Source: Crocosphaera subtropica ATCC 51142 (lineage in GTDB: Bacteria > Cyanobacteriota > Cyanobacteriia > Cyanobacteriales > Microcystaceae). From it: a stretch of 32,000 nucleotides of DNA. The notes beneath the pieces are model-generated. The model searched no databases and was not told where the DNA came from. It saw only the letters and a list, made by a program, of their open reading frames with translations. Below, one piece after another: positions 637-32,000 of the stretch (positions are counted from its first letter, which is position 1; the number at the start of each line of letters is the position of its first letter). A program made the translations under genes and the position numbers. The stretch is from NCBI RefSeq assembly GCF_000017845.1, contig NC_010546.1, positions 3,150,001-3,182,000 of the forward strand, read 5' to 3'.

Positions 637-3600
637 TTACTCCAAATCTGATAAAAAGTCCTCAAGTTCTTCTTGGGTAAAATCCATTTTGGGAAAATCA
701 AGGGGGGTATAATTTCTGTCTTCGGAAAATAAACAATAATCGATCATTTGTCGTAATATTTGACTGAAGTTTTGCATTAAATTATCAATGGTTGTTTGAC
801 GATACATTGAACGACTATATGTCCAATCAACTCGTAATTGATGATTAATAATTAGGCTGTTTATTTCAATTAAAGAACTTCTGCGATCGTGTGGACTTCT
901 TGCGGTTCCACTGGATTCTGGGGCGGGTTTAAAGGGTGATTCTGAGGGAAATAGGCGATCAAATTGTCCAAAATAATTAAAGCGAATGTCTGCCTGGGGG
1001 AGACTTTTTAGTTGTTTTTGAATTGCTTCATTACCTAAGTAACGTAAGATTCCGTAACCGATGCCGTGATCAGGAATATTGTTTAGTTGTTCTTTTATTT
1101 GGATAATAGATTCTAGAAAGGTTTCTGCTTGACTTAAATCGAATACGACAGGGAATAGGGTGGTAAACCAGCCAATAGTACGGGATAAGTTGATATCTTC
1201 AAATAAGTCTTCCCTCCCGTGTCCTTCTAATTCTATGAGTAATTTGTGTTGTCCTGTTAAGGCTTCAAAGGTTTGGACTAAAGCAGCAATTAAAACTTCA
1301 TTAATTTGGGTTTGATAACGACTAGGAATTTCTTGAAGTAATCTTTGTGTGTCTTCTTGACTAAGAGTTATAGAAAGGGTTTTAGCCTCAGCCATTGTAT
1401 TTTTTCCTGTGGGAAAATCAACGGGTAAACTAGGAATTGGATCTTGAAAAAGTTTTATCCAATTGGATAATTTTCCTTGCAGTAATTCAGAATTAGCATA
1501 GGTTTGTAATCGTTCTACCCAATATTTGAAAGAGGTGGTTTTTGGTGGCAATAATATTGTTTTATTCTGATTCAATTGCCGATAAGCCGTTTGTAAATCT
1601 TCTAAGAAAATGCGCCAAGAAATTCCATCAATTACCAGATGGTGCATAATTAATAATAAGCGACTACTGCGATGATTTCCTAAATTAAACCAAGCTACTC
1701 TTATTAAGGGATCTGAATTTAAAGAAAAGCTAGATTGGAGTTGAGTTGCTGCTCTAGAAATCGCTAATTCTAAACCTTGATCGGGTAAGGTTGAAAAATC
1801 AATTTCGATAAAGGGAATAACCTCATTAAAACTGTTATTGATTTGTTGCCAACCCAACTCTGTTGGTTCAAAACGTAAACGCAAAGCATCATGATGTTCT
1901 AATAATTTGGCGATCGCCTGTTGTAAATTCTGAGGATCAACCCTCTGCTGAATTTCTAATAAAATGGCTTGATTCCAATGATGAGGATCGCTTAAATTTT
2001 GTTCAAAAAACCAGTGTTGGATAGGGGTAAGGGGAACAACGCCTGTAATTGTTTCTTGTTCAGCGTAAATAGTGGAAGAAATTTGATCAAGAACCGAAGC
2101 AAGTTCAGCCATAGTTTGATGTTGAAACAAGTCTTTTGGGGTAAGTTTTAAGCCTATTTGATTCGCTTTTGCTACCACTTGGATAGCCAGAATAGAATCA
2201 CCACCCAAGGCAAAGAAGTTATCATGAATACTAATGCGATCGCATCCTAAAACTTGACTCCAAATAAGTGCAAGGGACTCTTGTTGAGCGGTTTGGGGAG
2301 CAATAAAGGTTTTGGTTTCGTCAGTATTGATCTGAGGTTCAGGTAAAGCTTTGCGGTTTACCTTGCCATTAGGCATTAACGGCAGTTCTTTTAGTACCAG
2401 ATAGAGAGACGGAACCATATAGTCAGGTAAACTTTGCTGGAGAAAATGGCGTAATTTGGCTTCTTCTAGTAATTGATCCATTGACTCCATAACCAGATAA
2501 GCCACTAACCGTTTATTGCCAGCATTATCTTCTTTTACTGTCGTCACGGCTTGAGAAATAGCTGGATACTTCAATAAGTTTTCTTCGACTTCCCCTAACT
2601 CAATACGAAACCCTCTGACTTTAACTTGATTATCAATACGTCCTAAATATTCAATGTGACCATCCTCTCGTAATCTTACCCTATCCCCTGTTCTATATAA
2701 ACGACTCCCTTCGATAGCCCCTTGGCCCCGCTTACTAAGGGGGGTTGAAGGGATCGGAATAAACCGTTCTGCGGTTAAGATGGGTTGATGTAAATAGCCT
2801 CTGGCTAACCCTTCTCCGCCTAAATATAATTCTCCTGGCACACCTAGGGGTACAGGTTGTAAATAGGCATCTAAAATATAAGCCTCAGTATTCGTAATAG
2901 CAACCCCAATACTAGGAGACTGTTGCGCTTCTGGATCAATTAAGGCTACCGTTGAATAGGTCGTATCTTCGGAAGGGCCATAAAGGTTAAAAACCTGCTC
3001 AATAGGGGAATTTTGATATAATTGCTGAACAAGATGCTTAGAAAGGGCTTCCCCTGCTAAATTAATCGTTTTAACGCTGTTAGGAATGGCATTTAGCCTT
3101 AATAACTCAGTGGCAGCAGTGGGGACAGTATTAACTAAAGTAACTTTCTCTGCATGAGGTAACTCAGCTAAAGCGAGGGCATTTTCTGCTAGGATAACCG
3201 TTCCTCCCCAACTCAAAGGAACAAAGATTTCAAATACAGATAGGTCAAAACACACAGAAGTAGAAGCTAACACCCCTGAAAGTTGTTCTGCGGTAAACGT
3301 TTCTTTTGCCCAGTATAAAAGAGCAACCGTGCTACGATGGGCGATCGCAACCCCTTTCGGCCTGCCTGTGGAACCCGACGTATAGATCAGGTATGCTAAA
3401 TTTTCAGGGAGAAGCTCACTTGAAGGGTTAATGAGAGCTTGTTGAATAATTTTATCCTGATCGACTTCTAGATCAATAATGGTTACGCCTGGTGGTTGTG
3501 AAATATTACCTTGAGTTATTAAAATAGGAATCTGAGCATCTTCCATCATTAAAGCCAAGCGTTCGGAAGGATAATTAGGATCTAAGGGTAAATACGCCCC

Positions 3601-6600
3601 TCCTGCTTTTAAAATCCCTAAAAGTACCACAATAAGTTGAGGAGAACGGTTTAAACACACACCGACGGGGGTTTCTGGTTTCACCCCTAACTGTTGTAAA
3701 TAATGAGCAAGTTGGTTCGCTTGGTGGTTGAGGTCCTGATAGGTTAATTCTTGAGTTTCATGGATAAGGGCGATCGCATCTGGCGTTCTTTTAACTTGTT
3801 CCTCAAACAGTTCATGTATCAACCCTTCAACTCTCTCCAGACTTTCCATACTTCCCACACTTCCCACCCCTAAGGGTAACTGCCACAGTTGCTGCTGAGG
3901 GTTAGCAATAATACCTGTAATTAAGGTTTGAAAATGTTGAGCTAGACGGCGAATTCTACTATCTTCAAAGAGATCAGTATTATACTCAAAAGTACCTATT
4001 AATCCCTCTGCTGTTTCTGTCATAAATAAGGTTAAATCAAACTTTGCCGTTGTACTTTCTGGTTTGACAGACTGTAAGGATAACCCAGGTAACTCCAGAG
4101 ACTGCATAGGAATATTTTGCAGCACAAACATCACTTGAAACAGGGAAGTATAACTTAAGTCTCGTTCAGGTTGTAATGCGTCAACTAACTGCTCAAAAGG
4201 AAGATCCTGATGACTATATGCGCCTAAAGTTGTTTCCCTTACCTGTTGTAATAATTGCACAAACGTCATTGTCCCTGACAAATGCGATCGCAAGGCCAAA
4301 GTATTCGCAAAAAAGCCAATTAACCCTTCAATTTCGCTACGATTACGGTTAGCAATGGGAGAACCGACAATAATATCCTCACTGTGAGTATAGCGATGTA
4401 ACAGCACATTAAACGCTGCTAACAACACCATGAATAAGGTGCTATTGTGTTGCTGACTTAACTGTTTTAACCCGTCAGACTGTTGTTGAGACAGTTGAAA
4501 TGTCAGCGTTTTCCCGTGAAAAGTTTGTACAGGAGGACGAGGGCGATCGCTTGGTATTTTTAGTAAGGTTGGGGCATTGTTTAACTGAGTTCTCCAGTAA
4601 GCGAGTTGCGTGTCTAAGGTTTCCCCTTGTAACCATTCTCGTTGCCATGCAGCAAAGTCTAAATACTGTATAGGCAGTTCAGGCAAAGGGGAGGGTTTTT
4701 GTTGGGAAAAGGCTTGATATAACGCTGCGACTTCCTGGATAAAAATGCCTACAGACCAAGCATCGGCTACACTATGATGGAGTACCAACAATAAAATATA
4801 GTCTTGTTCTGCTAACTGAAATAGTTTGACTCTTAATAAGGGAGTTTGAGCTAATTTAAAAGGCTGTTTTGCTTCCTTTACTGCTAATTTTTTGGCGGCT
4901 TCTTCTGAGTTTGGAGTATCTCGTAGATCAATAATAGGTAAGTTTAATGTGATAGTAGGGGAAATGATTAGTTGAGGTTTGCCGTCAACAGTTTTAATAC
5001 AACTCCGCAACACTTCATGGCGACCCACCACTTCATTAAGACTCTCTTGCAGCAGAGAAATATTCAGTTTACCTGTCAAACGAACTGCCCCAGGAATATT
5101 ATAAAAAGGACTATCAGGCTCTAATTGTGATAAAAACCATTGTCGCTGTTGAGCAAAAGATAAAGGTAACTCGCCATGACGATCTATTTTTTGAAATGAT
5201 AAAATCTCTTGCTTTCCTTCCCCATCAATAGCATTAGATAAACTTCTAATGGTTGGTTTTTCAAACAGTATTCTTAATGGTAACTCTCTTTCAAACACTT
5301 GGCGAACTTGAGACATCACCCGTGTCGCTAACAGAGAATGTCCCCCTAACTCAAAAAAGTTATCTTCCACACTCACTTGATTCAAATTGAGAATATTAGC
5401 CCAAATACCTGCTAAAATTTCCTCTGTTGCTGTTTTTGGTGCGATATAATCTTTATGATTTAATTCAATCTCTGGTAAAGCGTTACGATCAATTTTGCCA
5501 TTAGGGGTTAACGGTAAACTGTCTAACTCTATAAACCTTGACGGAATCATGTAACTGGGTAATTTTTCCGCTAAAAAGTCTTTTAGTGGGGGAGTATGGG
5601 TAGAGACAATATAAGCAATAAGACTTTCTTCTTTAACAATAACTACTGCTTCTTTTACTTGAGGATGAGTCAATAATATTGTTTCTATTTCTCCCAATTC
5701 TAGGCGAAATCCTCTTAATTTTAGCTGATAATCTGTTCTTCCTAAATATTCTATCTCTCCATCTTCCCCATACTTAACTAAGTCTCCTGTTTTATATAAA
5801 CGACTCCCTGCTTTTCCCCCCCTCTCAAGGGGGGTTGAGGGGATCGCCATAAATCTTTCTGCTGTTAATTTTGGTCTGTTTAAATAGCCTCTAGCTACTC
5901 CCATTCCTCCGATATATAATTCTCCTGGTACTCCTATAGGCACTTGATTATAGTCTTTATCTAACACATAAAATTGTGTGTTATTAATAGGTTTTCCTAA
6001 CCTAACTTTATCTGAAGTGACTTGATAAACTGATGACCAAATAGTGGTTTCAGTTGGGCCATATAAGTTCCAAACTGCTCTAGATTTTTGTTGCAGATGT
6101 TGCCCTAAACTGGGATCTAATGCTTCTCCCCCACAGAAAATCGTTAAATCTTTTTTTCCTTCCCACCCTGATGCGAGTAATAGTTTCCAAGTAGCAGGGG
6201 TTCCCTGCATGACGGTTACTTGATGGCTTTCTAACTGTTGCCCTAGGGTAACACCGTCTTGAGCAACAGTACGGGGAACTAAGACTAATTTTGCCCCAAC
6301 AATAAGGGGTAAATAGAGTTCTAAGGCAGCAATATCAAAGGATAGGGTTGTTACTGATAATAAAGTATCATCATCAGTTAATCCAGGTTTTTCACTCATC
6401 GAAACAAGAAAGTTACTTAACGCACGATGAGGTATTTGTACCCCTTTGGGAATACCTGTAGACCCTGATGTATAAATGATATACGCAAGATTGTCTAAGT
6501 TGATGTCTACATCGAGATTTGTCTTTTTTTCTTGATTAATTTCTCCTTGTACTTTATTAATATCAATCAAATATTTCACACTTTCCGAATTCCGAACTCC

Positions 6601-8418: not shown

Positions 8419-8570
8419 TTTAATAAATATGATATTAACTTTTTTAAATGCTATAATTATGATGCTTTACTGAAACAGTCTCTCTTGACAGTAACGGGAT
8501 AGAAATCATAATACACTATAGACTTAAAATGCTAAGATATTGTCAAGTTGTTAATATAATGATTCCTAGG

Positions 8571-9155: not shown

Positions 9156-9354
9156 AACAAAAATAAGATTTTAGTTAATATATTTTACCTTAAAAAAAGA
9201 GTGATTACCATTTAACAAGGGTTGTCAACTGCAATTAAGCAAGGGAAAAGTCAGTAGCATTCAAATACTAGCATTAAATCCAAGCAGTTTGGCTAATTTA
9301 TCCTCTCTTGAACCAATGGAAGTATTAGGGTAAGTATTCATCTCTTGCTAGAGA

Positions 9355-12300: not shown

Positions 12301-15300
12301 CTGCTGAGAAGTTTGTGTTAAGGTACTGGTAAACACCACAGGCATCAACGCTTCCCCTTTACCCCCTCGCAGACGAGATAACTCTCGTAAGACTTTCACC
12401 CCACTAACATGACGATGATCTAAATCTTCCCACAGTTGCCCTTGAATACGTCTTGCCCTGGTACTAAAAGCATCTTGTTCCTTATTATTCACTGTTAGAA
12501 GTAATGAAGAGGTAAAATCTCCAATCAGATGATTAATCTCAGGATGAATGGGTAAACGATTAAATAAAGTTAAATTTAAGGTAAATTCAGGGCTTTTACT
12601 CCAAGTGGTCAAAACTTCCGCAAAGGCTGCTAATAATAAACCCGACGGCGTGATACCCAACTGAGACGCTTTATCTTTTAATTTTTGCCAGTCATCAGTC
12701 TTTAGTTTGCCACTGCGACGCACAAAATGAGGTTGACTCACTGCCCCCAAACGCTTAGTTAAAGGGAGTTCAGGGGAAGGGGGTAACGTTGCTAAACGGT
12801 TTTGCCAATAAGACAGAGAACGCTGATAACCCTCCGAGTCTCGCCAAGCCTTTTCAGCTATTACATAATCTCGAAACGAAATACTTAAAGGCCATAAAGA
12901 AGTAACAGAATTCTGCAATATTTGAGCGAATTCCTGTCCTAAAATCTGAAAACTCCAAGCATCTCCAATCAATACCTCAAAACTTGCCATAAATCTCACT
13001 CTTTCCCCTGGTAAGAGAACCCCCTGAATCTCAAATAAGGGAAAGCGATCCGTGGGAAACATTTGATGAGAAAGGCGATCGCGCAATTTTTCTAACTCAG
13101 TCGCAACAGTTTCCTTACTCTCCTCTCGTAAGTCTAGGGTTTTAATCTTGTAGGGTGGCACTTCAGGCAAAACCCTTTGTTGTCCCTCTTCATCCACAAC
13201 CACTCGCAACATATCATGACGTTGGATCAACATTTGAAATGCCTCTTCAACCTGTTGAACCGTCAACCCGACTGTTTCAATCTCTCGATAACCATGAGTG
13301 GCCACATTACCCAACTCAAAGGCGGCACTGCGTCCAATGAGATAAGCTTGTTGAATGTCTGTTAAAGGAAAAGGCTCATCCCGTTCATGCGGTTTCGCCA
13401 CTAGGGTCGGTAAATTGGCTGATTCTAGCTTAATTTCCTTTTTTTCTGAAATTTTCGCCTCTAAACCTGCCACTGTTGGCTGTTCAAACAAACTGCGTAA
13501 GGGAACCTTCACCCCCAACCTTTCACTAATTTCTGCAATAACATTGATTCCTAAAAGAGAATGACCGCCCAACTCAAAAAAGTTATCATGAATACCAATT
13601 TTGTCAACTTTTAAAGCATTTTGCCAAATTTCCGCAATAGTTCTTTCAGTTTCCGTCTGAGGTTCTACATAGTCATTGTCTAAGCTACGTCCCAACGTCT
13701 CAGGCATAGGTAGAGACTTGCGATCTAACTTTCCATTCGGCAAACGAGGTAAGGCAGGTAACTCAATAAAGGTTGTGGGGATAGCATATTGCGGTAACTT
13801 TCCTACCAAAAAGTGGCGTAAGTTTTTGGGAGAGGCAGGCGATCCCCCCTTAGTAAGGGGGGGTAGGGGGGGATCAGTAACAAGATAAGCAACTAAACGT
13901 TGATTATTAGACTCCTTCTGCCAAACCATCACAGCATTTTCAACCATCCCTGGATGTTCACTCAATGCTGCTTCAATTTCTCCTAGTTCCAGGCGATAAC
14001 CCCGTACTTTAACCTGATTATCCCGTCTTCCCAAAAATTCTAAATTCCCCTGACCATCATACCGTACCAGATCCCCCGTTTTATACAATCTTACTCCCTG
14101 CTCCCTGCTCCTTTGTCCCTGCTTCTTCCCAACAAAAGGGTTCGGCATAAATCGTTGCGCCGTTAAAGGCGATCGCCCTAAATAACCCCGTGCGATTCCT
14201 GCCCCACTAAGATACAATTCTCCTGTAACCCCTTGAGGCACTAAGTTCAAGTAACGATCTAAAATGTATGTTTGAGTGTTACTAATGCCTTTCCCTATCG
14301 TTACCACACCCTCAGCATTACTTTTCACAGGGGTATAAGTCGAATAGGTCGTATCTTCCGAAGGGCCGTAAAGATTAAAAATAGATTGAATATGGCTCAA
14401 TTTCTCCAATTCCTCTACCAAACGATGGGAAAGAGCTTCCCCCGCTAAATTAATCCCTTTTACTGATATAGGAATCCCCTTGATCCGTAATAATTGAGCG
14501 ATCGCACTGGGAACCGTATTAATTAAAGTAATTTCTTCTCTGGCTGCTAAATTGGGCAAATCTAAGATATTTTCTGCTAAAATTACCTGATATCCCCAAC
14601 ATAAAGGCACAAATAACTCAAAAACCGATAAATCAAAACAAATAGACGTAGAAGCCAACACCCCTTGTAACAGTTCAGGGGAAAAAGTCTTTCTCGCCCA
14701 GTCTAATAATGCAACCGTGTTACGATGGGCAATGGCTACCCCTTTGGGACGACCTGTCGATCCAGAAGTATAGATAACATAGGCTAAATTGTCGGGATGC
14801 AAATTATTTGGGGGATTTTCTTTACTTTCTTGTGCAATTTTTGCACAATCTTTTTCTAAATCAATCCCATCACGTCCCAATAAGACTGATATCTGGGAAT
14901 CTTTGATAATAAAATCGATACGATCTTGAGGATAAGCAGGATCAAGGGGAATATAAGCCCCACCCGCCTTAAGAACCGCCAATAAGCCAATCACCATTTG
15001 GGGCGATCGCTCAACACAGATCCCTACTTTAACCTCTGGCCTGACCCCTAATTTTTGCAAATAATGGGCTAATTGATTCGCTTTTGTATTTAGCTCTTGA
15101 TAAGTTAATATTTCCTTTCCAAACCTTAACGCAACAGCGTCAGGAGTCCGTTTAACTTGTTCCTCGAATAACTGAGGAATGTTTGCAGTGTTTGGATAAT
15201 CTTGTGTTGTTGATGTACCCATCATCAGCAGTGTTTCTTGTTCTACTGTTGATAATAAAGGTAGCTCAGACAGTCTTTGTTTAGGGTTGGCCACAATGCC

Positions 15301-16752
15301 TTCTAAAAGCACTTGAAAATGTTCTGCCATCCGTGCAATAGTAGCCTCTTCAAATAAATCCGTACTGTATTCAATTTGCCCATTAATCCCCTCATTGGTA
15401 TCTTGAAGATTAAGGCGTAATTCATACTTAACCGTTTCTTGCTCCCCTGACAACCGTTCCAAACTTAGATCCGATAGTTCCAAAGGCTTCACCGTAGCCA
15501 GTTGAAAGTCAAATTTTACCTGAAATAAAGGCATTATCTGACTGAGATGGCGATCAGGGTTCAATACTTCTACTAACTTCTCAAAAGGCAAATCTTGATG
15601 AGCATAAGCTCCCAGTGTCACTTCTCTTACCCGTTGCAACACCGTCTGAAACGTAGGATTTCCTGATAAATCAGTGCGTAATACTAAAGTATTCACCAAA
15701 AGACCGATTAACCCTTCCATTTCACGGCGATCGCGGTTCGCTATTTCCGTTCCGATCACAATATCATCTTGCTCAGTATAGCGACAGAGCAGCACTTTAA
15801 AGGCACTCAGCAGCAACGTAAACAGCGTCACCCGTTCCTTCGCACTGAGAGCTTTGAGGGCATTACTCAGGGCAGGAGAAAGGGCAATGGGATAAGGTTT
15901 GCCTTTATATGAAGGAACCAGAGGACGTGATCGCTTGGTGGGAAGGTCTAAAATAGGTAAATCTTGGCCCAGTTTTTGCTGCCAATAATTAATCTGTTTT
16001 TCTAACACCTCCCCTTGTAACCATTGACGCTGCCAAATTGACCAGTCACCATATTGAATCGGTAATGAGGGTAAATAGAAAGCCTTTTCCGTGTCTTTTC
16101 CCCTCTTTCCAAGGGGGGGTAGGGGGGGATCGCCTCCTGCCTCCTTCAAAAACCCATTATAAAGCGTGGTCATTTCCCGTAAGAAAATACCAATTGACCA
16201 GCGATCGCAGACAATATGATGGGTGGCAATTAATAAAATATGCTCTGTTTCAGACCGTTTGAGTAAGATTAAGCGTAATAAAGATTCACTCAGATTAAAA
16301 GGACGCAAGGACTCTGTTCTCACAATACGCTGAATTTCTGTTTCTGCATCAGCAATGCCTTGTAAATCAACCATAGGCAACGAAAACGGCTCAAACGCCT
16401 TAACCACTTGAATCGGTTGGCGATCGCTATCGGTGGTAAAGGTTGTCCTTAGCATTTCGTGGCGTTTCACGATCTCGTTGAGAGTTCGCTCTAATATCTC
16501 AACTTCTAGCTTTCCCCTGAGACGAAAGGCACTGGGAACATTATAGGAATTATTCTCAGGTTCTAACTGTTGAATAAACCAGAGTCGCTGTTGAGCAAAA
16601 GAAAGGGGAATAACGGCTGATGACTGCCGTTTGCCAATCATTTGAGTCTGAAAAGAGGGATGCTTAATATTTTTTTCTTTCAGTCGCTTTTCCAATAGAG
16701 CGCGTTGTTCTGGAGAAAGATTTGCAATTAGTTGGGAAAGGTCTTGATTCAT
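9355..16752 (-). CDS. non-ribosomal peptide synthetase: C-A(Cys-like)-T-Cy-A(Cys-like, with embedded Ox domain)-T
   Basis: 2465-aa ORF with ATG start. Motifs: C '[11 protein letters not shown]'/'HHIVCDRWS'; A '[16 protein letters not shown]'; T '[10 protein letters not shown]'; Cy '[14 protein letters not shown]'; A '[16 protein letters not shown]'; nitroreductase-like insert '[14 protein letters not shown]' between A8 and A9; T '[10 protein letters not shown]'. Acidic C-terminal tail. Confidence 0.97.
   Translation of the reverse strand: [2465 protein letters not shown]
9520..9745 (-). other. T (PCP) domain
   Basis: '[16 protein letters not shown]'. Confidence 0.85.
9780..12010 (-). other. 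A domain, hand-read code DLYNLSLIWK (Cys), interrupted by an Ox domain
   Basis: '[10 protein letters not shown]', '[10 protein letters not shown]', 'LLSGDWL', '[13 protein letters not shown]'. A8 '[12 protein letters not shown]' lies at about 10770-10800, A9 'LPDYMIP' at about 9849-9869, and A10 'NGKIDR' at about 9783-9810. Confidence 0.8.
9960..10625 (-). other. FMN-dependent oxidase (Ox, nitroreductase-like) domain embedded between A8 and A9
   Basis: About 220 aa inserted between 'AAYIVPNQ' and 'LPDYMIP'. Contains 'RRQSYRQF', '[17 protein letters not shown]', 'GFYYYHP', '[11 protein letters not shown]', 'LGLCPIG'. Same placement as the embedded oxidase domains of thiazole-forming NRPSs such as EpoB. 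Confidence 0.8.
12070..13390 (-). other. heterocyclization (Cy) domain
   Basis: '[16 protein letters not shown]', '[13 protein letters not shown]'. The active-site region reads '[10 protein letters not shown]' in place of the usual DxxxxD. Confidence 0.85.
13450..13672 (-). other. T (PCP) domain
   Basis: '[16 protein letters not shown]'. Confidence 0.85.
13828..13875. repeat. G-run/GATC mini-element, full palindromic form, in frame between A8 and A9
   Basis: 'gggagaggcaggcgatccccccttagtaagggggggtagggggggatc' encodes [16 protein letters not shown]. The termini GATCCCCCC...GGGGGGATC are inverted repeats. Confidence 0.8.
14094..14130. repeat. CTCCCTG heptamer array, in frame in an A domain (A6-A7 loop)
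   Basis: 'ctccctgctccctgctcctttgtccctgcttcttccc' encodes [12 protein letters not shown]. Confidence 0.8.
15290..16615 (-). other. C domain (LCL-type), preceded by an N-terminal docking-like helix
   Basis: '[13 protein letters not shown]', 'HHIVCDRWS'. N-terminus '[16 protein letters not shown]'. Confidence 0.85.
16101..16144. repeat. G-run/GATC mini-element plus TCCTGCC heptamers, in frame in a C domain
   Basis: 'ccctctttccaagggggggtagggggggatcgcctcctgcctcc' encodes [16 protein letters not shown]. Confidence 0.8.
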
Positions 16753-16796: not shown

Positions 16797-16827
16797 TTCT
16801 CGGCTAAAATCTTCTCGGCCAAAAATC
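16797..16827. repeat. tandem 15/16-bp direct repeat in the PKS-NRPS intergenic spacer
   Basis: 'ttctcggctaaaatc' followed by 'ttctcggccaaaaatc', 45-75 nt upstream of the NRPS start at 16752. Confidence 0.6.
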
Positions 16828-16896
16828 CTGGTTAAGCCCTTGCATTATTATGAACCTACCGATGGAAGATTGCAACAATAAGTATAGAAGACTATA

Positions 16897-19800
16897 TTAT
16901 TCCTCGTTCAATTGAGCTTTAATCTCTTCAGAAGAAAGGCTTTGAATTTCAGCCAATACCTCACTTAATGCTTCTAAATCCTCAGTTTCTTCTTTATTTT
17001 GCTCAATAATAGCTGTAATACCAGCAATGGTTGGGGCTTCATACAGCAGACTCCCCATCGATAACTCCACTTGAAACGTCTCTTTAAGGCGAGAAAGGGC
17101 TTGAATGGCTAAGAGAGAATGCCCTCCTAGGTCAAAAAAGTTGTCATTGACTCCAATGGGTTGAATACCAAGAATTTCTTGCCAAATATTGGCGATCGCA
17201 TTTTCAATCTCATTGCGTGGGGCAACATATTCATTGGCTAAATTAGGTCTTTGGTGTTGAGCAGCGTTTTGATTAACCTCTGTGGACGTTTCTTCTGTTG
17301 TTTTAGGGGATAATTTAACTTGAGTGCTTCCCTTGAGTCGGGCGTGAAGATCCCCTTTAGAAACAATGATTTGAGAGGACAAACCAGAGGCTAAAATACG
17401 TTCTATGACGGCTGTAACTTCTTGGGGAGTTAGGGCAAAGGGAATTAAACTGCTTCCTAACCCCATAGCCTTCTGTTTATCTTCTTCTGATAGACAAGCA
17501 TCCCAGTTGACACTGATCCAAGGAGTTTGACTGATTTGATTTTGCTGATGGACAAAGGCATCTAGAAAACGATTAGCTGCACTATAGGCCCCTAACCCTA
17601 ATCCCCCTAACACCGCAGACAAGGATGATTGTACTAATACAAAATCGAGCTTTTTATCCTGCAAACTGACGGCCAAAGGATAAAGTCCTTGAGCTTTGGT
17701 TTGAAAATTATACTCACCGTGAGAGCGTTCTAAGAGTTGAATGGGAGCAGCAGAGAGAGGGCTACTCATAGGGGTGGCGTAGAATACTCCATGAAGCTTA
17801 TCAACTTGCCCCATAATCTCGTTTAAGTTGGTTTCGGGACTAAAAACTAAACAGGTTGCGCCTTTGGCTTCTAAGGCTTGAATTTGATGAATTTGCTGAA
17901 AAATGGTTTCTTGTGTTTCTTTATTTGTTAAAATTTTATCCCATTCTTCCCGTTTCGGTAATTTTTCCTGACTCACTAAGAGAATGGTTGTGTCTCCTGT
18001 TGCGGCTACTTGTTGAGCAAATATTCCCCCCAAACTGCTGACTAACTCTCCTAAAATCAGGTAATTTCCGCCTTTTCGCAGTTGAATTTTTTTTGTTTTC
18101 GGTTCTTTCAAGGACATCCGTTTAAAGGTTTGATGCCAACGATAAGCACCTCGATAAGCCACAATTAACTCTTTTTGAGGATCAAGAAATTCAGTTAAAA
18201 GGCGATCTCCTGCCTCCTGCCCCCTGATTGCTTCAATATCAATATTACGACAAGAAACTTGAGGATATTCTTGATTAATCACCTGACATAATCCCACAAC
18301 GGGCATTTTTTCAGGGATTAATTCTTCCTGTCCTACCACATCATACAATCCTTGAGTGACCACAAAAACTTCTTGGCACAAGGGGATAAGGGTTTGTCCT
18401 AACCACAATAAGCTATAAAATCCTTGTTCTTGATAGGCTGTCAATTCTTTGTTTTCTGTTTCAATGTTCCATAAATGAACAATAAAATTAGGTATTAACT
18501 GTCTTAACTTTAAATCTTCTGCTAAAGCTTGATAATCTTCCCGTTTATTAGGATTAATAGTAAAACAACGGTAGTCTGGTTCTGCAAACTCCTGTCCTGG
18601 AGTTACCGTCAACACCTCTTGCCCTGCTTTGGTTAAGCTATCAGTAATATTGGCTCCGATCCCTTGAGAATCGAGGAAAATCAACCAACACGCTCGGGTT
18701 TCCCTTAAAGATTCCCAATCAATGTCTAAAGAGGCTATATCTCGCTCCCAGGAAGGCACATAAAACCAATCTTCCAGGTCTTGATAAATGGCGATCGCCT
18801 CTTCTTTGGGGTCTTCAAATTGAGCCTCGATCCAGTACCGCTTACGTTCAAAGGGATAAGTGGGTAACGGCACACGGTAACGGCGTTCATCGCCATAAAA
18901 CCCAGACCAGTTAATTTCAACCCCTGCTTGCCAAAGTTTGCCTAAAGTGTTGAGAATGAAAGCAATATCAGACTGTTCCTCTTTCGGATGACGCAAAGAA
19001 GTTAAAATCACCTGCTCACTATTCAACCCAAGCTGTTGCTGTGTCAGGGTACTTAAGGTTTTGCCCGGCCCAACTTCTAAGAAAATGCGTTGCGGTTCTT
19101 TAGCTAATTCAGCAATACCCTCTGCAAAGCGAACAGTTCGCCGTAGATGGTTTACCCAATAAAGAGGATCAGTAGCTTCTGTATCCTTAATCCAGGTTCC
19201 CGAAACATTAGAGATAAAGGGGATTTGGGGATAATGTAAAGAAATGCGGCTAATTTCCCCCTCAAATTCCTTTAAAATGGGTTCCATTATCGCTGAATGG
19301 AAAGCGTGGGAAGTATGAAGAGGACGACAAGCAATATTTTGACTTTCTAGATCCTTTTGTAATTGTGCGATCGCAGTTTCTGTTCCTGAAACCACACATA
19401 ACTGAGGGGCATTTACGACAGCCAAACTGAGATCCTCCCCCAAATAGGGTTGAATCTCTGCTTCTCCCAAGGCAACGGATAACATTTTCCCAGAATCGCA
19501 CTTCTGCATTAACTTACCACGAACAGCGACGATTTTTAGGGCATTTTCTAACGAAAACACCTTAGCTAAAGTTGCTGCCACATATTCCCCAATACTATGA
19601 CCCATCATCACATCAGGTTCAATGCCCCAACTCATCCACAGTTTCGCTAAGGCATATTCAATGATAAATAAAGCAGGTTGAGCATAGATTGTTGAGCGTA
19701 GATTATAAGAATTTTCTAGTGTTGCCTGTTGACTTCCCCCCTTAGTATTAGTAAGGGGAGGCAGGGGGAGATCGCCTACTCCCTGCTCTTCAAAAATAAT

Positions 19801-21609
19801 CCCCCGTAAATCCCATCCTAAACTTGATTGAAGCAAGTCACAACAGCGATCGACTTCTTGTTTAAAAATGGGTTCAGTCTCATAAAGTTCTTTCCCCATC
19901 CCTACATATTGGCTGCCTTGGCCTGAAAATAGAAACGTCACGGGACGATGAGAGGAACTTGCTGAAGAATGAGTTAAAAAAGAAGATTCTAGCTGCTTTA
20001 TGGCATTTTTGTGATCCTGACAAACAATAAAACCACGATACTCAAAATCTCTCCGTCCCACTTGCAAAGTGTAAGCTACATCCCCTAAATTAAGCTCTGG
20101 ATGTTCTTTTAAATGGTTTACCAGATTTTCCCTTGCCTTTTCTAAAGCTGTCGCAGTTTTCGCTGACAACGGTAATAAATAACTTTTGCCTCCTGCTTGC
20201 CCCCCTTGGCTGATCCCCCTCCTGTCCCCCTTGGAAAAGGGGAAGCCGAAGGATGCTTCGCTTTTGTTTGGTCTGGGGTTGGGGGGATCGCCTTCTGCTT
20301 CTTCCAAAGGGGACTCCTCTAAAACAACATGAACATTAGTCCCTCCAATGCCAAAGGAACTAACCCCTGCCCGTCTCGGTATGCCGTTGCTTTGCCACTT
20401 TGACAAGGTCGTATTAACGTAAAAAGGGCTATTCGTAAAATCAATTTGAGGGTTGGGCTGTTTAAAATGTAAACTGGGCGGAATTTGTCTATTTTTTAGG
20501 GCTAACGTAGTTTTAATTAAACTGGCTATTCCCGCAGCCGTATCTAAATGTCCAATATTCGTTTTCACCGATCCCAAAGCACAAAACCCCGTTTTATCAG
20601 TGCCAACCCGAAACGCTTGGGTTAAGGCAGCAATTTCAATGGGATCGCCTAGTGCAGTTCCTGTGCCGTGTGCTTCAATATAGGAAATGCTCTCAGGTTC
20701 AACTTCTGCTAAATGTTGCGCTGCTTTAATCACTTGGGTTTGACTATCCAGGGAAGGGGCAGTATAACTGACTTTTTGCGCCCCATCGTTATTAATGGCT
20801 GATCCTTTAATCACAGCAAGAATATTATCTCCTTCGGTTAAAGCATCTTCTAGTCGTTTCAGTACCACTAAACCAACCCCGTTACCACTGACCGTCCCTT
20901 TGGCATCAGCATCAAAGGCACGACAATGACCATCTGGAGAATAAATACCGCCCTCTTGATAGAGATAGCCCATCTGCTGAGAAATGGCAACCCCACCGGC
21001 TAAGGCCATGTCGCATTCTCCACTGAGTAAGCTTTGACAAGCTAAGTGAACAGCCACTAAAGAGGTAGAACAAGCGGTTTGAACATTGACGCTCGGGCCA
21101 TCGAGATTTAATTTATAAGATACCCGTGTTGTCAAGAAGTCTTTATCACTGGCAATAAATAATTGATAAGGATCTAAATTATTGTTGTTTTTAGACTGAC
21201 TGTAAACATTGAAGAGATAACCATTCATACCTGCGCCCCCAAATACACCGATCGCCCCTTCATATTTTTGGGAGTCATATCCTGCATTTTCTAAAGCTTC
21301 CCAGGCACATTCTAAAAAAAGACGGTGTTGCGGGTCGATAATTTCGGCTTCTCTAGCATTGAAACCAAAGAATTCAGCATCAAACTGGTCTACGTCTTCC
21401 AATTTAGCTGCTGCTTTGACATAATTCGATTTTTTCAATAATGCTTCATTAACACCCTGTTTCAGTAAATCTTCATCGCTGTAAACAGTAATTGACTCTC
21501 TCCCTTGGGATAAGTTCTGCCAAAAGGCTTCGATGGTGTTAGCCCCAGGAAAACGCCCTGCTATGCCGATAATTGCGATTTCTAAGCCATTATTGAGTAA
21601 ATCAGTCAT
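16897..21609 (-). CDS. type I polyketide synthase module: KS-AT(malonyl-type)-KR-like-carrier (PCP-type motif)
   Basis: The ORF track starts at a TTG (21618). An ATG at 21609 gives '[22 protein letters not shown]'. Motifs: KS '[11 protein letters not shown]', '[14 protein letters not shown]', '[10 protein letters not shown]'; AT '[10 protein letters not shown]', 'GHSIGE', 'HAFH'; KR-like '[19 protein letters not shown]'; carrier '[10 protein letters not shown]'. Confidence 0.96.
   Translation of the reverse strand: [1570 protein letters not shown]
17020..17230 (-). other. carrier domain with a PCP-type (GGHSL) rather than ACP-type (GxDSL) core
   Basis: '[45 protein letters not shown]'. Confidence 0.8.
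17345..18775 (-). other. ketoreductase-like region (structural plus catalytic subdomains) with a non-canonical nucleotide-binding motif
   Basis: 'DWFYVPSWE' start. '[16 protein letters not shown]' stands where GTYLITGGLGGLG is expected. '[19 protein letters not shown]' retains Ser/Tyr/Asn. 'SVNWD' end. Confidence 0.6.
18201..18226. repeat. GATC plus TCCTGCC heptamers, in frame in the KR-like region
   Basis: 'ggcgatctcctgcctcctgccccctg' encodes RGQEAGDR. Confidence 0.7.
18950..19945 (-). other. acyltransferase domain, malonyl-CoA type
   Basis: '[14 protein letters not shown]', '[10 protein letters not shown]', 'HTSHAFHS' (HAFH motif). Confidence 0.85.
19736..19788. repeat. G-run/GATC mini-element plus CTCCCTG heptamer, in frame in an AT domain
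   Basis: 'ccccccttagtattagtaaggggaggcagggggagatcgcctactccctgctc' encodes [18 protein letters not shown]. Confidence 0.8.
20188..20297. repeat. about 110-bp composite MITE-like element, in frame in the KS-AT linker
   Basis: Bounded by 'gatccccc' (20212-20219) and 'ggggggatcgcc' (20281-20292). Internal hairpins 'cccccttggaaaagggg' and 'gaagccgaaggatgcttc'. Encodes [35 protein letters not shown]. Confidence 0.7.
20315..21580 (-). other. ketosynthase domain
   Basis: The active-site Cys codon is at 21070..21072 in 'QTACSTSL'. His motifs 'EAHGTGT' and 'NIGHLD'. Confidence 0.9.
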
Positions 21610-21622
21610 TTTCTTCAAAATT

Positions 21623-24600
21623 TCAAGATTTCTTATTTTTCTGGAGACGTTGTTTTAACCGTTGTTTTCCTGCCGTTAGGCGATTGCTTCTTTGCTCTGA
21701 TGCTTCAAAAACAGGGTTTTTAGACTTCTGGCGTTCAAAATAGGTTGATAAAGCCCTAATGGTTGGATATTGAAACATCTCAACCAGGGAAATGTCGGAT
21801 GAAAAGGCTTCTCGTACTTTACTGTGTACCCGAACCATTGACAAAGAATGGCCACCAAGGTCAAAGAAGGGATCATGAACCCCTATTGTCTCAACTTTTA
21901 GCACTTCTTGCCAAATTTTAGCAATAGTTTTTTCAATTTCGCTGCGAGGACTAACATAGGTTTCGTTTAACGGTTGTCGCTCTTTTGACTCTGGTAAAGC
22001 GTTACGATCAATTTTGCCATTAGGGGTTAACGGTAAACTGTCTAACTCTATAAACCTTGACGGAATCATGTAACTGGGTAATTTTTCCGCTAAAAAGTCT
22101 TTTAGTGGGGGAGTATGGGTAGAGACAATATAAGCAATAAGACTTTCTTCTTTGACAATAACTACTGCTTCTTTTACTTGAGGATGGGTCAATAATATTG
22201 TTTCTATTTCTCCCAATTCTAGGCGAAATCCTCTTAATTTTAGCTGATAATCTGTTCTTCCTAAATATTCTATCTCTCCATCTTCCCCATACTTAACTAA
22301 GTCTCCTGTTTTATATAAACGACTCCCTGCTTTTCCCCCCCTCTCAAGGGGGGTTGGGGGGATCGCCATAAATCTTTCTGCTGTTAATTTTGGTCTGTTT
22401 AAATAGCCTCTAGCTACTCCCATTCCTCCGATATATAATTCTCCTGGTACTCCTATAGGCACTTGATTATAGTCTTTATCTAACACATAAAATTGTGTGT
22501 TATTAATAGGTTTTCCTAACCTAACTTTATCTGAAGTGACTTGATAAACTGATGACCAAATAGTGGTTTCAGTTGGGCCATATAAGTTCCAAACTGTTCT
22601 AGATTTTTGTTGCAGATGTTGCCCTAAACTGGGATCTAATGCTTCTCCCCCACAGAAAATCGTTAAATCTTTTTTTCCTTCCCACCCTGATGCGAGTAAT
22701 AGTTTCCAAGTAGCAGGGGTTCCCTGCATGACGGTTACTTGATGGCTTTCTAACTGTTGCCCTAGGGTAACACCGTCTTGAGCAACAGTACGGGGAACTA
22801 AGACTAATTTTGCCCCAACAATAAGGGGTAAATAGAGTTCTAAGGCAGCAATATCAAAGGATAGGGTTGTTACTGATAATAAAGTATCATCATCAGTTAA
22901 TCCAGGTTTTTCACTCATCGAAACAAGAAAGTTACTTAACGCACGATGAGGTATTTGTACCCCTTTGGGAATACCTGTAGACCCTGATGTATAAATGATA
23001 TACGCAAGATTGTCTAAGTTGATGTCTACATCGAGATTTGTCTTTTTTTCTTGATTAATTTCTCCTTGTACTTTATTAATATCAATCAAATATTTCACAC
23101 TTTCCGAATTCCGAACTCCGCTGCGAAGCACGACGAAGTCGCCCTCTGAACCCTTGATTAAATAATCAATTCCTGAATCTTTGATCATAAAATCGAGACG
23201 TTGTTCAGGATAGTTGGGGTCTAGGGGTAAATAGGCTCCTCCTGCTTTTAAAATAGCGAGTAAACTAATCACCATGTCTAAAGAAGGGTCTAAACATATC
23301 CCTACTAAGGTTTCTGGTTTGACTCCTAAACGTTGTAAATAATGAGCCAGTTGATTGGCTTTTTGATTTAATTGTTGATAGGTTAATGATTCATTGTTAA
23401 AAATAACAGCAATTTTATTCGGACTCTTCTTGACTTGTGTTTCAAATAGTTGATGTATGTAAATCTCCCTGCTCCCTGCTCCCTGCTCCCTTCTGCCTTG
23501 TATAAATAACTCTTTTTGTTCAGAGCTTGTTAATAAAGAAATTTGGCACAATTGTTGTTTAATATCTTTAGAAATACTGGTTAATACAGTTTCTAAATGT
23601 CCCAACAAGCGGTTGATACTGCTAGACGAAAAGCGATCGCTATCATATAAAATTCTTAGGGATAACTGTGACGTGACAGCAGCGTAAAGCGTTAAAGGAT
23701 AATTGGTTTGTTCAGTAGTGTTAATATTATCAATTTCTAACCCTTGTAATGACTGTTTTAAGGTCGATTCAACGGGATAATTCTCAAAAATTACTAAACT
23801 TTCAAATAAGGGAAAATGACCAGGAACCTCACTGCCGCGGTGAATGTCTAATAGGGGACTATATTCATATTGCTGTTGTTCAATTTGCTGAGTTTGTAGC
23901 TGTTTTAGCCAAGAAATAAGCGATTCTTGGGGATTTACCTTAACTCGTACTGGCAAGGTATTGATAAATAAGCCAATCATCGATTCTGCGTCCCTTAAAT
24001 CTGGCGGACGACCTGATACCGTTGCTCCAAAAACAATATCTGATTCTCCACTATAGCGACTCAATAATAAGGAAAATGCCCCTTGCACCAGTGTATTTAA
24101 AGTTAGTTGCTGCTGTTTGGCTAATAATTGCAAGGCTGTGGTAAGTTCTAAAGACAGTTGTTTCTCTTGTTCATCATATCGAGAAGGAGCCTTACGAAAG
24201 CTTTCCCGTGATTGTCCAATACCTAATGGAGTCGGTGCAATAAAACCTTTGAGAGTTGTTTTCCAAAATTTTTCAGCCTTTGACCCGTCTTGTTTTTGCA
24301 GCCATGCAATATAGTCCCGATAAGGGGGAGGTGTATCTAAATTGATGATTTTTTTAAAACAAAATCCTTGATAATAAGTCAAAAATTCTTTGAAAAGACA
24401 ACTGACTGACCAACCGTCCAGCAAAAGATGATGATACGTCCAAATAACTTGATAATAATCTATTCCCAATTTAATCAGCGTTACCCGCATTAACGGAGCG
24501 TGAGAAAGCTTAAATCCTTGTTGACGTTGCTGTTGTAATAATTCTGTTAATTTTTCGGACTGTTGAGTAATAGAAAGGGTTTCCCAGTTTAGTTGTTCAA

Positions 24601-24859: not shown

Positions 24860-25121
24860 AAGCAGATAGTCATCTAAAATTTTAGCTAAGGTTAGGAGAG
24901 CAAAGGATATCAATCTTTATTTGAGTATTTAAGTAAAAACCCTCTTAATGCAAAGACGGATGAAAAGTTGACCTCTAATTTTTGCGTCGTCGAATAATAC
25001 TAATAAAACTTCACTGTTTCTATACAAAGTGTTATATCATAATTCAACATTGTTGCTCAACTCATCTGTTAAAGACTGTGGAAAGAAGATTGTACTTAAT
25101 ATAAAATCCGCTTAATGACTC

Positions 25122-25137: not shown

Positions 25138-25144
25138 CGGCAAA

Positions 25145-25180
25145 CCCCTCCTCCCCTGCTCCCTACTCCCTACTCCCTGC
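25145..25180. repeat. CTCCCTR heptamer array, intergenic (divergent promoter region)
   Basis: 'cccctcctcccctgctccctactccctactccctgc'. Confidence 0.8.
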
Positions 25181-26015: not shown

Positions 26016-26030
26016 GTGCAATTTTTGCAC
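26016..26030. promoter_or_regulatory. perfect palindrome GTGCAA-TTT-TTGCAC, candidate operator
   Basis: 6+3+6 inverted repeat, 20 nt downstream of the TATAAT and 28 nt upstream of ATG 26058. Confidence 0.3.
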
Positions 26031-26057
26031 GTTCCTCCTAATCACATCATCTCGCCA

Positions 26058-29843: not shown

Positions 29844-32000
29844 ATCATGAACTTTCCGACTCCCAGAGAGTGCTTCTTGCCCTCAAACAAGCCCGTTTGC
29901 AGCTAGAAACCCTTGAACGACAAAAAAACGAGCCTATTGCCATTATTGGCATGGACTGCCGTTTTCCAGGGGATGCCAACAGTCCCGAAGCTTACTGGGA
30001 ACTCTTGCGTAATGGTGTGGATGGGATCACCGATATTCCTGGCGATCGCTGGAACGTAGAAACCTATTACGACTCAGATCCCGACGTTCCTGGGAAAATG
30101 TACACTCGTTACGGAGGATTTATCGATGGGGTGGATCAGTTTGATCCTCAATTTTTCGGCATTTCTCCCCGTGAAGCCATGAGTCTTGATCCTCAGCAAC
30201 GATTACTCTTAGAAGTGAGTTATACTGCCTTAGAACGGGCAGGACAGCCCCTAGACTCCTTAGAAGGGAGCAAAACCGGGGTATTTATGGGGATTTGTTT
30301 TGACGACTATTCTCGGTTAAGCCTTAACTCTGGTGATCCCACGTTGATCGATGCCTATAGTAGTTTAGGGAATACCCGCAGTATTGCCGTAGGACGTATC
30401 GCCTATGTGTTGGGACTACAGGGGCCGGTGATACAGTTAGATACCACCTGTTCCTCTTCATTGTTAGCGGTTCATCTCGCCTGTCAAAGCTTACGCACGG
30501 GAGAATCTAATTTAGCCTTAGCAGGAGGGGTTAATTTAATGCTCTCTCCTGAAGTCAGCATCGGTTTTTCTAAGCTCAAAGCTCTTGCCCCTGACGGACG
30601 CTGTAAAACCTTCGATCAACGGGCTGATGGCTACGGACGGGGAGAAGGCTGTGGTATTGTGGTGTTAAAACGGTTATCCGATGCGATCGCCGATGGTGAT
30701 ACTATTTTAGCAACCGTTCTTGGTTCAGCCGTCAATCATGATGGTCAAAGCAACGGCTTAACAGCCCCCAATGGTTCGGCCCAGGAAGCGGTGATCCGTC
30801 AAGCCTTAGAAAATGCCAAAGTTGATCCCACTCAGATCCAATATGTAGAAACTCACGGCACAGGAACATCTTTGGGCGACCCCATTGAAGTGTTGGCCTT
30901 GAGTAAGGTGTTAGGAGAAGGCAGAAAAGAGGATAACCCCATTAATATTGGCTCAGTTAAAACGAATTTTGGTCATCTGGAGTCGGCTGCTGGGGTGGCG
31001 AGTTTGATCAAGGTTATTTTGTCACTGCAACATCAAGAGATTCCTCCCCACCTTCATTTTCAAACCCCAAACCCTTATATTCCCTGGCACAAGCTACCCG
31101 TAACCGTTCCTACTACCTTAACCCCTTGGGAAGTCAAAAATGGCCGTCGTTTAGCAGGTGTTAGTTCCTTTGGCATGAGTGGGACGAATGTTCATCTTAT
31201 TGTCGGAGAAAGCGCAAAAATTAAGGAAAACATTGAAACACCAAAAGTTGACCGCCCCTTACATCTATTAACCTTATCCGCCAAAACCGAAACCGCTTTA
31301 CAAGCACAGATAGAACAATATAAAACCTATTTAACCACCCATAAAAACCTATCTTTTGCCGATATTTGTTTCAGTGTTAATAAAAAGCGATCGCACTTTG
31401 ATTATCGTCTCAATATTATAGCTAGTTGTGTAAAAGAAGCATCAGAAAAACTAAATAATTCATTGCCTCCTGCCTTCTCCCGTTTGGTAAAGGGGGGCAA
31501 GGGGGTATCGCTTCCTATTGCCTTTTTATTCACCGGACAAGGTTCCCAATATATGGGTATGGGACAACAACTTTATCAAACCCAACCCACTTTTAAAGCA
31601 ACATTTGATTACTGTTGTGACATCCTTCAATCTTACCTAGGATGGGATCTCAGAGAGATTCTTTTTGCAACAGAATATCCCCACTTTATAAGGGGAGGTA
31701 GGGGGGGATCTCCTGCCTCCTCCTTACACTCAACAATTAATACGCAACCTGCTTTATTCGTCATTGAATATGCTTTAGCCAAACTATGGCTATCTTGGGG
31801 GATTAAACCTAATATAATGATCGGTCATAGTATTGGGGAATATGTCGCAGCCACCCTAGCAGGGGTATTTAGTTTAGAAGATGGCTTAAAACTGATTACA
31901 GCTAGAGCGCAACTAATGCAAGCACTGCCTGAAACTGGCTCAATGGTGGCTGTTTTTGCAACATTAGAAACCGTAAAAAAAGCAATTAATTCTTACTCAG
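29840..32000 (+). CDS. type I polyketide synthase (KS-AT...), 3'-partial, continues beyond the window
   Basis: Not in the ORF track because no stop is reached. The ATG overlaps the upstream stop (ATGA at 29840-29843). My translation: '[44 protein letters not shown]...', '[12 protein letters not shown]', '[14 protein letters not shown]', '[10 protein letters not shown]', then AT '[10 protein letters not shown]', 'GHSIGE'. Confidence 0.93.
   Translation, partial: [720 protein letters not shown]
29932..31205 (+). other. ketosynthase domain
   Basis: The Cys codon is at 30449..30451 in 'DTTCSSSL'. Also 'ETHGTGT' and 'NFGHLE'. Confidence 0.9.
31465..31511. repeat. G-run mini-element with heptamer flank, in frame in a plus-strand PKS (opposite orientation relative to translation)
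   Basis: 'gcctcctgccttctcccgtttggtaaaggggggcaagggggtatcgc' encodes [15 protein letters not shown], just before the AT GQGSQ motif. Confidence 0.75.
31517..32000 (+). other. acyltransferase domain (partial)
   Basis: '[14 protein letters not shown]'. 'GHSIGE' has its Ser codon at 31829..31831. The specificity motif lies beyond the window. Confidence 0.8.
31688..31723. repeat. G-run/GATC mini-element plus TCCTGCC heptamers, in frame in the plus-strand AT domain
   Basis: 'ataaggggaggtagggggggatctcctgcctcctcc' encodes [12 protein letters not shown]. Confidence 0.8.

Follow-up and report, generated by a model that had tools for sequence, protein, structure and literature searches.

The short G-run palindromes that lie in frame within non-ribosomal peptide synthetase (NRPS) and polyketide synthase (PKS) genes of Crocosphaera subtropica (formerly Cyanothece) ATCC 51142 are members of a family of short, dispersed palindromic repeats found across cyanobacteria. 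We analysed them in a 32,000-nt stretch of this genome (hereafter, the window; positions 3,150,001 to 3,182,000 of NC_010546.1), nearly all of which is filled by a hybrid NRPS/PKS cluster whose genes are here called A to F. In this cluster, the copies are lineage-specific insertions at variable loops and linkers, where the reading frames have remained intact under purifying selection. The explanation that we favour, and regard as probable, is that the family acts as a non-autonomous mobile element whose copies land in frame in the cluster genes and are tolerated there, the copies presumably having originated by transposition. The basic unit is about 31 nt long, T-CCCCCC-TTnnnAA-GGGGGG-YTR-GGGGGGATC, in which a C-run/G-run hairpin is followed by a second G-run and then by GATC, and copies in ATCC 51142 often carry a GCCTCCTGCCTCC tail.

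Allowing up to two mismatches, the core GGGGGGNNNGGGGGGATC (pattern GGGGGG-NNN-GGGGGGATC) matches the window seven times, always on the plus strand, against 0.06 matches expected from shuffled sequences. The tail GATCGCCTCCTGCCTCC matches six times against 0.04 expected, and a profile built from the window copies recovers eight plus-strand units at E <= 5e-6 when the window is scanned. The original prediction had listed nine copies in a uniform plus orientation, and all nine stretches lie where it placed them and have the sequences it gave. The uniformity holds for the seven core matches, but the copy at 2713-2757 scores on both strands and the left half of a dimer at 20212-20289 is in the minus orientation. 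Moreover, at most seven of the sites are independent, since the copies at 5816 and 22335 belong to a shared tract and both, together with the copy at 2713-2757, occupy a homologous loop of the adenylation (A) domain. Every copy falls within a long open reading frame (ORF), and its in-frame reading yields the peptides that had been predicted, GDPPLPPLxKGG or PSTPLERGG in the minus-strand genes and KGGKGVS or RGGRGGSP in the plus-strand gene F; the short plus-strand ORFs 13676..13888 and 16038..16262 also exist and overlap two copies. Depending on the variant, the unit is free of stop codons in one to three of the three frames per orientation, mostly in two, in line with the earlier claim. This property explains why both orientations relative to translation survive in genes, as they do in the window and in other cyanobacterial proteins. 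The inserts are presumably translated, and the insert-spanning stretches predicted for the window proteins include EAGGDPPLPPLGK and GGSQQATLENSYNLR.

The family extends far beyond this cluster. Scanning a single genome of each prokaryotic species for the pattern CCCCC-N5-10-GGGGGG-NNN-GGGGGGATC, we retrieved at least 131 copies, spread over at least 120 loci, against fewer than 10 expected by chance according to our estimate for a uniform base composition. Among the matches listed, 115 of the 120 loci belong to named cyanobacteria of many orders (Nostocales, Oscillatoriales, Pseudanabaenales, Chroococcales with Microcystis, Crocosphaera and Prochloron, and others), the carriers including Crocosphaera watsonii and Crocosphaera sp. 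XPORK-15E. The consensus of the dimer described below matches 24 of 72,556 plasmids, all of them cyanobacterial, and none of these matches falls under an annotated feature. The expectation that the motif would be repeated elsewhere is thus confirmed, almost exclusively in cyanobacteria. Several features that the scan pattern did not enforce are conserved, namely the T before the C-run, the TTnnnAA loop and the YTA or YTG spacer, and the right end is sharp, as conservation stops right after GATC and the flanks are unconserved. Again among the matches listed, 119 of the 131 copies (~91%) lie outside long ORFs and 12 are intragenic and in frame (seven sense and five antisense), with hosts comprising a histidine (sensor) kinase, a Ser/Thr kinase (between the HRD and DFG motifs), MetH, TPR-CHAT proteins and a porin. 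These 131 copies show no orientation preference relative to neighbouring genes, which makes a terminator-like role unlikely.

When the window and nine loci were scanned against Rfam, the unit matched no RNA family; the only hits were an unrelated HEARO RNA and a tRNA. A HEARO RNA (RF02033, linked to an HNH endonuclease) is located at 5484-5701 of L021, a locus that has two G-run units, neither of which it overlaps. Viral contigs yielded no typical unit, only a look-alike motif in high-GC contigs. In the IMG/VR contigs L212, L213, L215 and L219 (63-68% G+C), this look-alike consists of a C-run/G-run hairpin with a GC-rich loop, followed by TAA, TTA or TTG, then by GGGGGGATC and by T-rich sequence; judging from the base composition, it is unrelated to cyanobacteria.

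Many genomes carry the unit as the right half of a 76-78 nt inverted dimer with the core GATCCCCC-TAAAT-CCCCC-TTAAAAA-GGGGG-ACTTTGAnnnCCGGTT-CCCCCC-TTTTTAA-GGGGGG-YTA-GGGGGGATC, which folds as one long hairpin (-27.9 kcal/mol as DNA, z = -4.7). The C6/TTnnnAA/G6 hairpin of the single unit folds too, at -8.8 kcal/mol as DNA, with a stability not above that of shuffled sequences of the same composition. The same dimer core occupies a central position in at least three MITE-like shells (MITE, miniature inverted-repeat transposable element) that differ in their terminal inverted repeats, and 61% of the copies have a second hairpin 10-25 nt upstream. Both observations could mean that the unit is the central passenger of MITEs of the DDE type, immobile alone, and that the solitary units in genes are decayed or truncated MITE remnants. 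However, apart from its own hairpin the unit lacks terminal inverted repeats, and neither the window copies nor the insert in the closest orthologous locus (L127, see below) show shell sequence or terminal inverted repeats beyond unit and tail, the flanks diverging right after GATC. One core in three unrelated shells is more simply explained by a core that inserts into palindrome centres, as noted for other REP (repetitive extragenic palindromic) dimers in Anabaena (PMC3733652). We therefore find the passenger explanation improbable.

The alignment with orthologues bears out the claim that the inserts are strain-specific, the coded residues being absent from distant orthologues and variable between close ones. 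In gene C, the ~37 residues of the linker between the ketosynthase (KS) and acyltransferase (AT) domains and the 18 residues of the AT loop are absent from the same ~17 cyanobacterial orthologues (~55% identity), and the latter are also extra relative to ZmaA. The AT-loop insert is common only to a 79%-identical protein, P0002 (GDPPPSPLTKGG versus GDLPLPPLTNTKGG), whose DNA, L127, is 82% identical to that of gene C. Between gene C and L127 there are four indels of at least 6 nt, all but one of them multiples of three, and two of three sites differ by in-frame presence or absence. The KS-AT linker is 77 nt longer in the window; in place of the G-run composite found there, L127 has (CAGTTAC)n heptamers, coded as SEQLAVTSEQLPVTS, so that this linker has been invaded by two different repeat types. 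In the AT loop the window is 6 nt longer, owing to a duplication in the hairpin. At window position ~18228 it is L127 that is longer, by 84 nt, through an in-frame insert that contains a complete unit (GATCCCCCCAACCCCCCTTAGTAAGGGGGG) at the very spot of the tail remnant 18195..18224 of the window. Gene C and its orthologue present a dN/dS of 0.16 at a dS of 0.69, with the shared insert kept in frame, and this purifying selection indicates that the inserts persisted in working genes. Similarly, the condensation (C) domain of gene B has a clean 16-residue insert relative to 16 homologues, which appears as a 13-residue gap against the solved Txo2 structure.

These comparisons also bear on the idea that no mobile unit was inserted and that slippage, hairpin-templated repair or short-patch conversion from other copies created the sequences in situ. 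Such an origin would account for the sites at which part of the ancestral loop gave way to the unit and only 5-8 residues were gained net, for the nearby heptamer arrays that overwrite a conserved motif with the length unchanged, and for the 6-nt duplication in the hairpin loop of the window AT copy, which corresponds to slippage; in addition, HIP1 is described in PMC5861425 as thought to spread by substitution. Nevertheless, the clean in-frame differences of 48, 77 and 84 nt carry a complex 31-nt sequence, this sequence is nearly identical in distant orders, and the element boundary at GATC is sharp. An origin in place is thus very improbable.

The copies have hit the KS-AT linker and several loops: one in AT, one in the C domain, the one that precedes motif A7 in A domains and one in the C-terminal subdomain of an A domain. 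The pre-A7 loop is occupied in module 1 of gene A (5816..5848, plus strand, coding MAIPSTPLERGG and lying in the 99.5% tract described below), in gene D (22335..22367, plus strand, coding MAIPPTPLERGG) and in module 2 of gene A (2713..2757, coding PIPSTPLSKRGQG). The copy at 22335 is a duplicate of that at 5816, produced through a 1549-bp conversion tract, and the copy in module 2 is a degenerate, symmetric, two-tailed unit, GATAGCCCC-TTG-GCCCCGC-TTACTAA-GGGGGG-TTG-AAGGGATC, which nhmmer scores on both strands. Other cyanobacterial A domains are affected at the same loop (P0199, IPPTPLNKG; P0142, PPLAKGRG). Gene B presents two plus-strand copies: a 48-nt unit with an inverted tail, GGGAGAGGCAGGCGATC-CCCCCC-TTAGTAA-GGGGGGG-TA-GGGGGGGATC (13828..13875, coding DPPLPPLTKGGSPASP), in the loop of the C-terminal A subdomain, and a unit with the tail GCCTCCTGCCTCC (16100..16148), which is the clean 16-residue insertion (~48 nt) in the C domain, EAGGDPPLPPLGKRGK.

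In gene C, the unit and tail at 19736..19788 (plus strand) code for EQGVGDLPLPPLTNTKGG in the AT loop, are common to the 82%-identical orthologue only, and contain the 6-nt duplication in the hairpin loop. The composite of the KS-AT linker (20188..20302, adding ~37 residues and without a single orientation) contains a decayed inverted dimer, GATCCCCC...GGGGGGATC, of 78 nt at 20212-20289, whose left half is in the minus orientation, together with flanking tails. Between the AT and ketoreductase (KR) domains of the same gene, only a tail remnant with GGCGATC and CTCCTGC heptamers is found (18195..18224, plus strand), coding RGQEAGDR. Finally, gene F reads its two plus-strand copies in sense: a unit with a left tail (31465..31511) in the linker directly before the AT domain, read as LPPAFSRLVKGGKGVSL, and a unit with a tail (31678..31723) in an AT-domain loop, read as IRGGRGGSPASS. 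The AT domains of the paralogues C (minus strand) and F (plus strand) thus have a unit in the same loop (19736-19788 and 31678-31723), although different residues and opposite orientations relative to the gene indicate two independent hits.

Regarding structure, the AlphaFold2 model was read for the AT domain, its KS half being of low confidence and not used. Residues 612-637, the AT insert of gene C, are modelled as coil with a predicted local distance difference test (pLDDT) score below 50, and the surrounding AT domain mostly has block-mean pLDDT values of 84-97.

The dense load of this cluster, with seven sites, and the repeated hits on the same loops (the pre-A7 loop of several A domains and, in two paralogues, that of AT) could suggest that the inserts are functional: they might serve module swapping as recombination hot spots, provide tuned flexible linkers, or play a regulatory part as hairpins, G-quadruplexes or polyproline pause sites. 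Judged by sequence, G7-TAG-G7 would fit a G-quadruplex motif and DPPLPPL has diproline pairs that might act in this way. The recombination role can be confronted with a tract of 1549 bp, 99.5% identical between 5470-7018 (gene A) and 21989-23537 (gene D), that spans the A domain and whose flanks are only ~40-55% identical, pointing to a recent gene conversion or domain swap between genes A and D. This only recent tract ends 346 nt from the nearest unit, so its boundaries do not coincide with units and the suggested role as recombination hot spots finds no evidence here. Furthermore, the unit is ~91% intergenic elsewhere among the matches listed and also occurs in unrelated proteins, close orthologues differ in their filled sites and yet are under purifying selection, the inserts are predicted to be disordered, and single-unit hairpins are no more stable than shuffled sequences. 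A function is highly unlikely on these grounds. Since the tract ends away from the units, lineages differ in their filled sites and disorder is predicted, we read the inserts as tolerated passengers that are presumably neutral.

Under the favoured explanation, the family behaves like a non-autonomous mobile element: it is dispersed and mostly intergenic, often arranged as inverted dimers like those known as REPINs (REP doublets forming hairpins), and nested centrally in unrelated MITE-like shells. Copies would occasionally land in coding DNA, where selection would retain those that preserve the frame, lack stops and fall in surface loops or inter-domain linkers. The retained copies would then be read as Pro/Gly-rich peptides, DPPxPPLxKGG in one orientation and PLxKGGxGG or RGGRGG in the other. 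Large NRPS and PKS proteins, with their many permissive loops and linkers, may be where such copies accumulate.

Several observations must be weighed against this explanation. The near-uniform plus orientation within the window has a nominal p of ~0.016 by our estimate. The window density, 0.22 copies/kb, is ~7 times the 0.03/kb of an unselected 295-kb cyanobacterial sample from other genomes; the load is dense, as the original prediction noted, and the element is not special to the assembly line. At four or five sites, which are the other A-domain sites and those of gene F and lie in loops of variable length, only 5-8 residues are gained net, even though the unit codes for 10-16. Part of the old loop must have been lost or overwritten there, so these are not simple insertions. 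A target-site duplication is not evident at one clean filled/empty pair (L127 filled, window empty). Lastly, no mobilising enzyme was found.

One candidate for such an enzyme would be a REP-associated tyrosine transposase (RAYT). The unit could be a true REP/REPIN, mobilised as single-stranded DNA by a RAYT (an HUH, Y1 tyrosine transposase) present once per genome. Its short GC-rich hairpin, the inverted dimers folding as one hairpin and the mostly extragenic copies agree with this, in-frame REP insertions have been found in cyanobacterial RAYT genes of subclass 2.4 (PMC6006769), and the plus-strand bias of the window would fit a mechanism acting on the lagging-strand template. However, this bias is not general, because within other loci 40 pairs were concordant and 45 discordant. 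Searches with phmmer using RAYT and TIRYT queries detected one Y1 gene among the 120 element loci listed, a Y1_Tnp gene ~230 nt from a dimer in Dulcicalothrix (L025). The family of this gene (Y1_Tnp, PF01797) is 65-91% identical across cyanobacterial orders, a spread that matches that of the unit. Nevertheless, when 80 metagenome loci of this L025-type family were considered, the unit was found within 400 nt upstream in two and downstream in none, no more than the background density gives, and the upstream flanks of these genes were not conserved. A RAYT link through the L025-type family, which represents one subclass, was thus rejected, the REPtron feature being absent in this 80-locus follow-up. 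In L025 and L128-L207, a motif GTGCCAGGTAtCGA is conserved 3' of the Y1_Tnp gene in 41 of ~60 loci, and the L025-type Y1_Tnp resembles a domesticated transposase, single-copy and set in conserved surroundings.

In addition, no conserved GT[AG]G guide precedes the foot of the unit's hairpin on the 5' side. Most genomes have YTA or YTG as the triplet that separates the two G-runs, and GTAG is seen only in some ATCC 51142 copies, 3' of the hairpin. In contrast, the REPs that PMC6006769 (Table S1) lists beside cyanobacterial RAYTs form long hairpins whose foot is GTAG, and they lack G6 runs. Taken together, we consider a RAYT-mobilised REP rather unlikely. A bolder version of the favoured mobile-element explanation, which we put forward only tentatively, is that the G-run unit would be an orphan among mobile elements, spread through the phylum, and that its 31-nt sequence would be held nearly constant across cyanobacterial orders by a trans-acting machinery corresponding neither to known RAYT/REP pairs nor to a classical MITE transposase. 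It might target palindrome centres or structured DNA, and could act as a natural in-frame insertion mutagen through the Pro/Gly-rich segments that it would introduce at loops and linkers of cyanobacterial proteins, above all in megasynthases.

The source of the window is clear, as gene C is 100% identical to the type I PKS of ATCC 51142. On the minus strand, gene A (637-8418) encodes an NRPS with the order C-A-T-C-A-T-C (T, thiolation), gene B (9355-16752) an NRPS with a nitroreductase-type oxidase, gene C (16897-21618) a PKS with KS-AT-KR-ACP (ACP, acyl carrier protein), and gene D (21623-24913) an NRPS with C-A-T. Between the NRPS genes A and B lies a minus-strand gene of the Uma2 family, putatively restriction endonuclease-like (8571-9155). 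On the plus strand, gene E (26016-29843) encodes an acyl-AMP ligase/acyl-CoA dehydrogenase/ACP and gene F (29792-32000) a PKS with KS-AT that continues past the window end. Re-assemblies of the same strain from independent sequencing runs reproduce window positions 6989-19155 exactly; hence, assembly artefacts are ruled out for the copies at 13828 and 16101. In L001, L002, L005 and L006, four independent assemblies of the strain from short reads, the sequence breaks off at window position 6989, which lies within the 99.5% duplicated tract and adjoins a heptamer array, so this break is repeat-induced.

Other repeats have entered the same genes. Heptamer tandem arrays similar to the short tandemly repeated repetitive (STRR) sequences are in frame in genes A, B, C, D and E (6946-6972, 14094-14123, 18207-18226, 23465-23491 and 27059-27095), the heptamers of the window arrays being CTCCCTG, CTCCTGC, GAACTCA and CCCTACT, and a further CCCTACT array (25154-25178) is intergenic. 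The arrays in A and D code for RREQGAGSRE and overwrite the conserved WNxTxxxYP motif without changing its length, and the heptamers of gene B add ~8 residues to the pre-A7 loop that carries the G-run unit in the three other A domains. Another repeat-coded peptide, PLPNPPL[AGS]KGR(E/V), is present in linkers of the Nostoc-type NRPS/PKS proteins P0085, P0086, P0097, P0142 and P0231, partly at the same post-AT position as window 18195-18224.

The filled sites provide a natural map of NRPS/PKS positions that tolerate 5-37 extra residues under purifying selection, and this map could guide linker engineering and tag placement. They also call for caution in annotation: the repeat is the source of Pro/Gly-rich stretches like DPPLPPLxKGG in cyanobacterial proteins, and the short ORFs that cross the unit are spurious. 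Finally, a 31-nt sequence that is near-identical phylum-wide and found in several MITE-like shells makes its movement addressable by comparative genomics and simple biochemistry.

Among known repeat systems, small cyanobacterial repeats offer a first comparison. Literature string searches for the unit sequence retrieved nothing relevant, and no description of the family was found in the texts consulted, which did not include the consensus sequences of GTAG-16 and of the small dispersed repeats (SDRs). The SDRs (Elhai et al. 2008) resemble the unit as very small cyanobacterial repeats nested in conserved contexts, but PMC5861425 reports them as 21-27 nt long and confined to Nostocaceae, whereas the unit occurs in Chroococcales, Oscillatoriales, Pseudanabaenales and others; it is therefore set apart by this reported distribution and not by sequence. 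The same article gives HIP1 (GCGATCGC) as the proposed insertion site of SDR5, and the window copies have GATCGCC, one half of a HIP1 site, at their end. Cyanobacterial MITEs (Nezha, MaeMITE and the Anabaena MITEs in mcy genes; PMC3184786, PMC10969869) are non-autonomous, inhabit the same genomes and are sometimes fused to ORFs or inserted in toxin synthetase genes, and the dimer core is itself found inside MITE-like shells. In contrast to the unit, which is far smaller, has no evident duplication and keeps the frame, MITEs measure 100-400 bp, have terminal inverted repeats along with target-site duplications, and as a rule inactivate the gene they enter.

Two REP families, GTAG-15 and GTAG-16, are reported in Cyanothece 51142 in PMC3733652. 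The identity of the unit with GTAG-15 was considered and rejected, because GTAG-15, recognised from its described context as GTAGGGTGCGTTA...TAACGCACC, is a different element. GTAG-tagged REP dimers GTAGGGTGCGTTA...TAACGCACCCTAC within a long palindrome TATAGGAnTnnnATTTGATTnnTGAAA are present at 6137-6400 of L008 and 5895-6100 of L089, and match the description of GTAG-15 in that article. With REPs and REPINs in general (Bertels & Rainey 2011, PMC3116915; Di Nocera 2013, PMC3733652; Quentin 2018, PMC6006769), the unit has in common a short GC-rich hairpin palindrome, many dispersed and mainly extragenic copies, and inverted doublets that fold as one. Intragenic REPs located at loops have already been reported, among them REPs that lie in frame in RAYT genes of cyanobacteria. 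The unit nevertheless differs from REPs by the absence of a conserved GT[AG]G foot, by the second G-run and GATC 3' of the hairpin, by its lack of enrichment beside the cyanobacterial Y1 genes tested, by its dissimilarity to the REPs beside cyanobacterial RAYTs, and by being nearly identical across orders when REPs are usually species-specific.

In-frame palindromic inserts are classically known from the Rickettsia palindromic elements (RPEs) (Ogata et al. 2000, summarised in PMC10969869 and PMC3733652) and have been reported for REPs in several phyla, including those in cyanobacterial RAYT genes (PMC10969869, PMC3733652, PMC6006769). Like the unit, RPEs are palindromic dispersed repeats of both coding and non-coding DNA that are found in frame in many unrelated, apparently functional genes and are coded as extra surface segments. 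However, RPEs are ~100-150 bp long, restricted to Rickettsia, unrelated in sequence and more often intragenic, whereas the unit measures 31 nt (76-78 nt as a dimer), is distributed across cyanobacteria and is ~91% intergenic, so that the resemblance is one of behaviour only. The G-run family therefore fits a cyanobacterial case of in-frame palindromic insertion, of the kind known from Rickettsia and from REPs.

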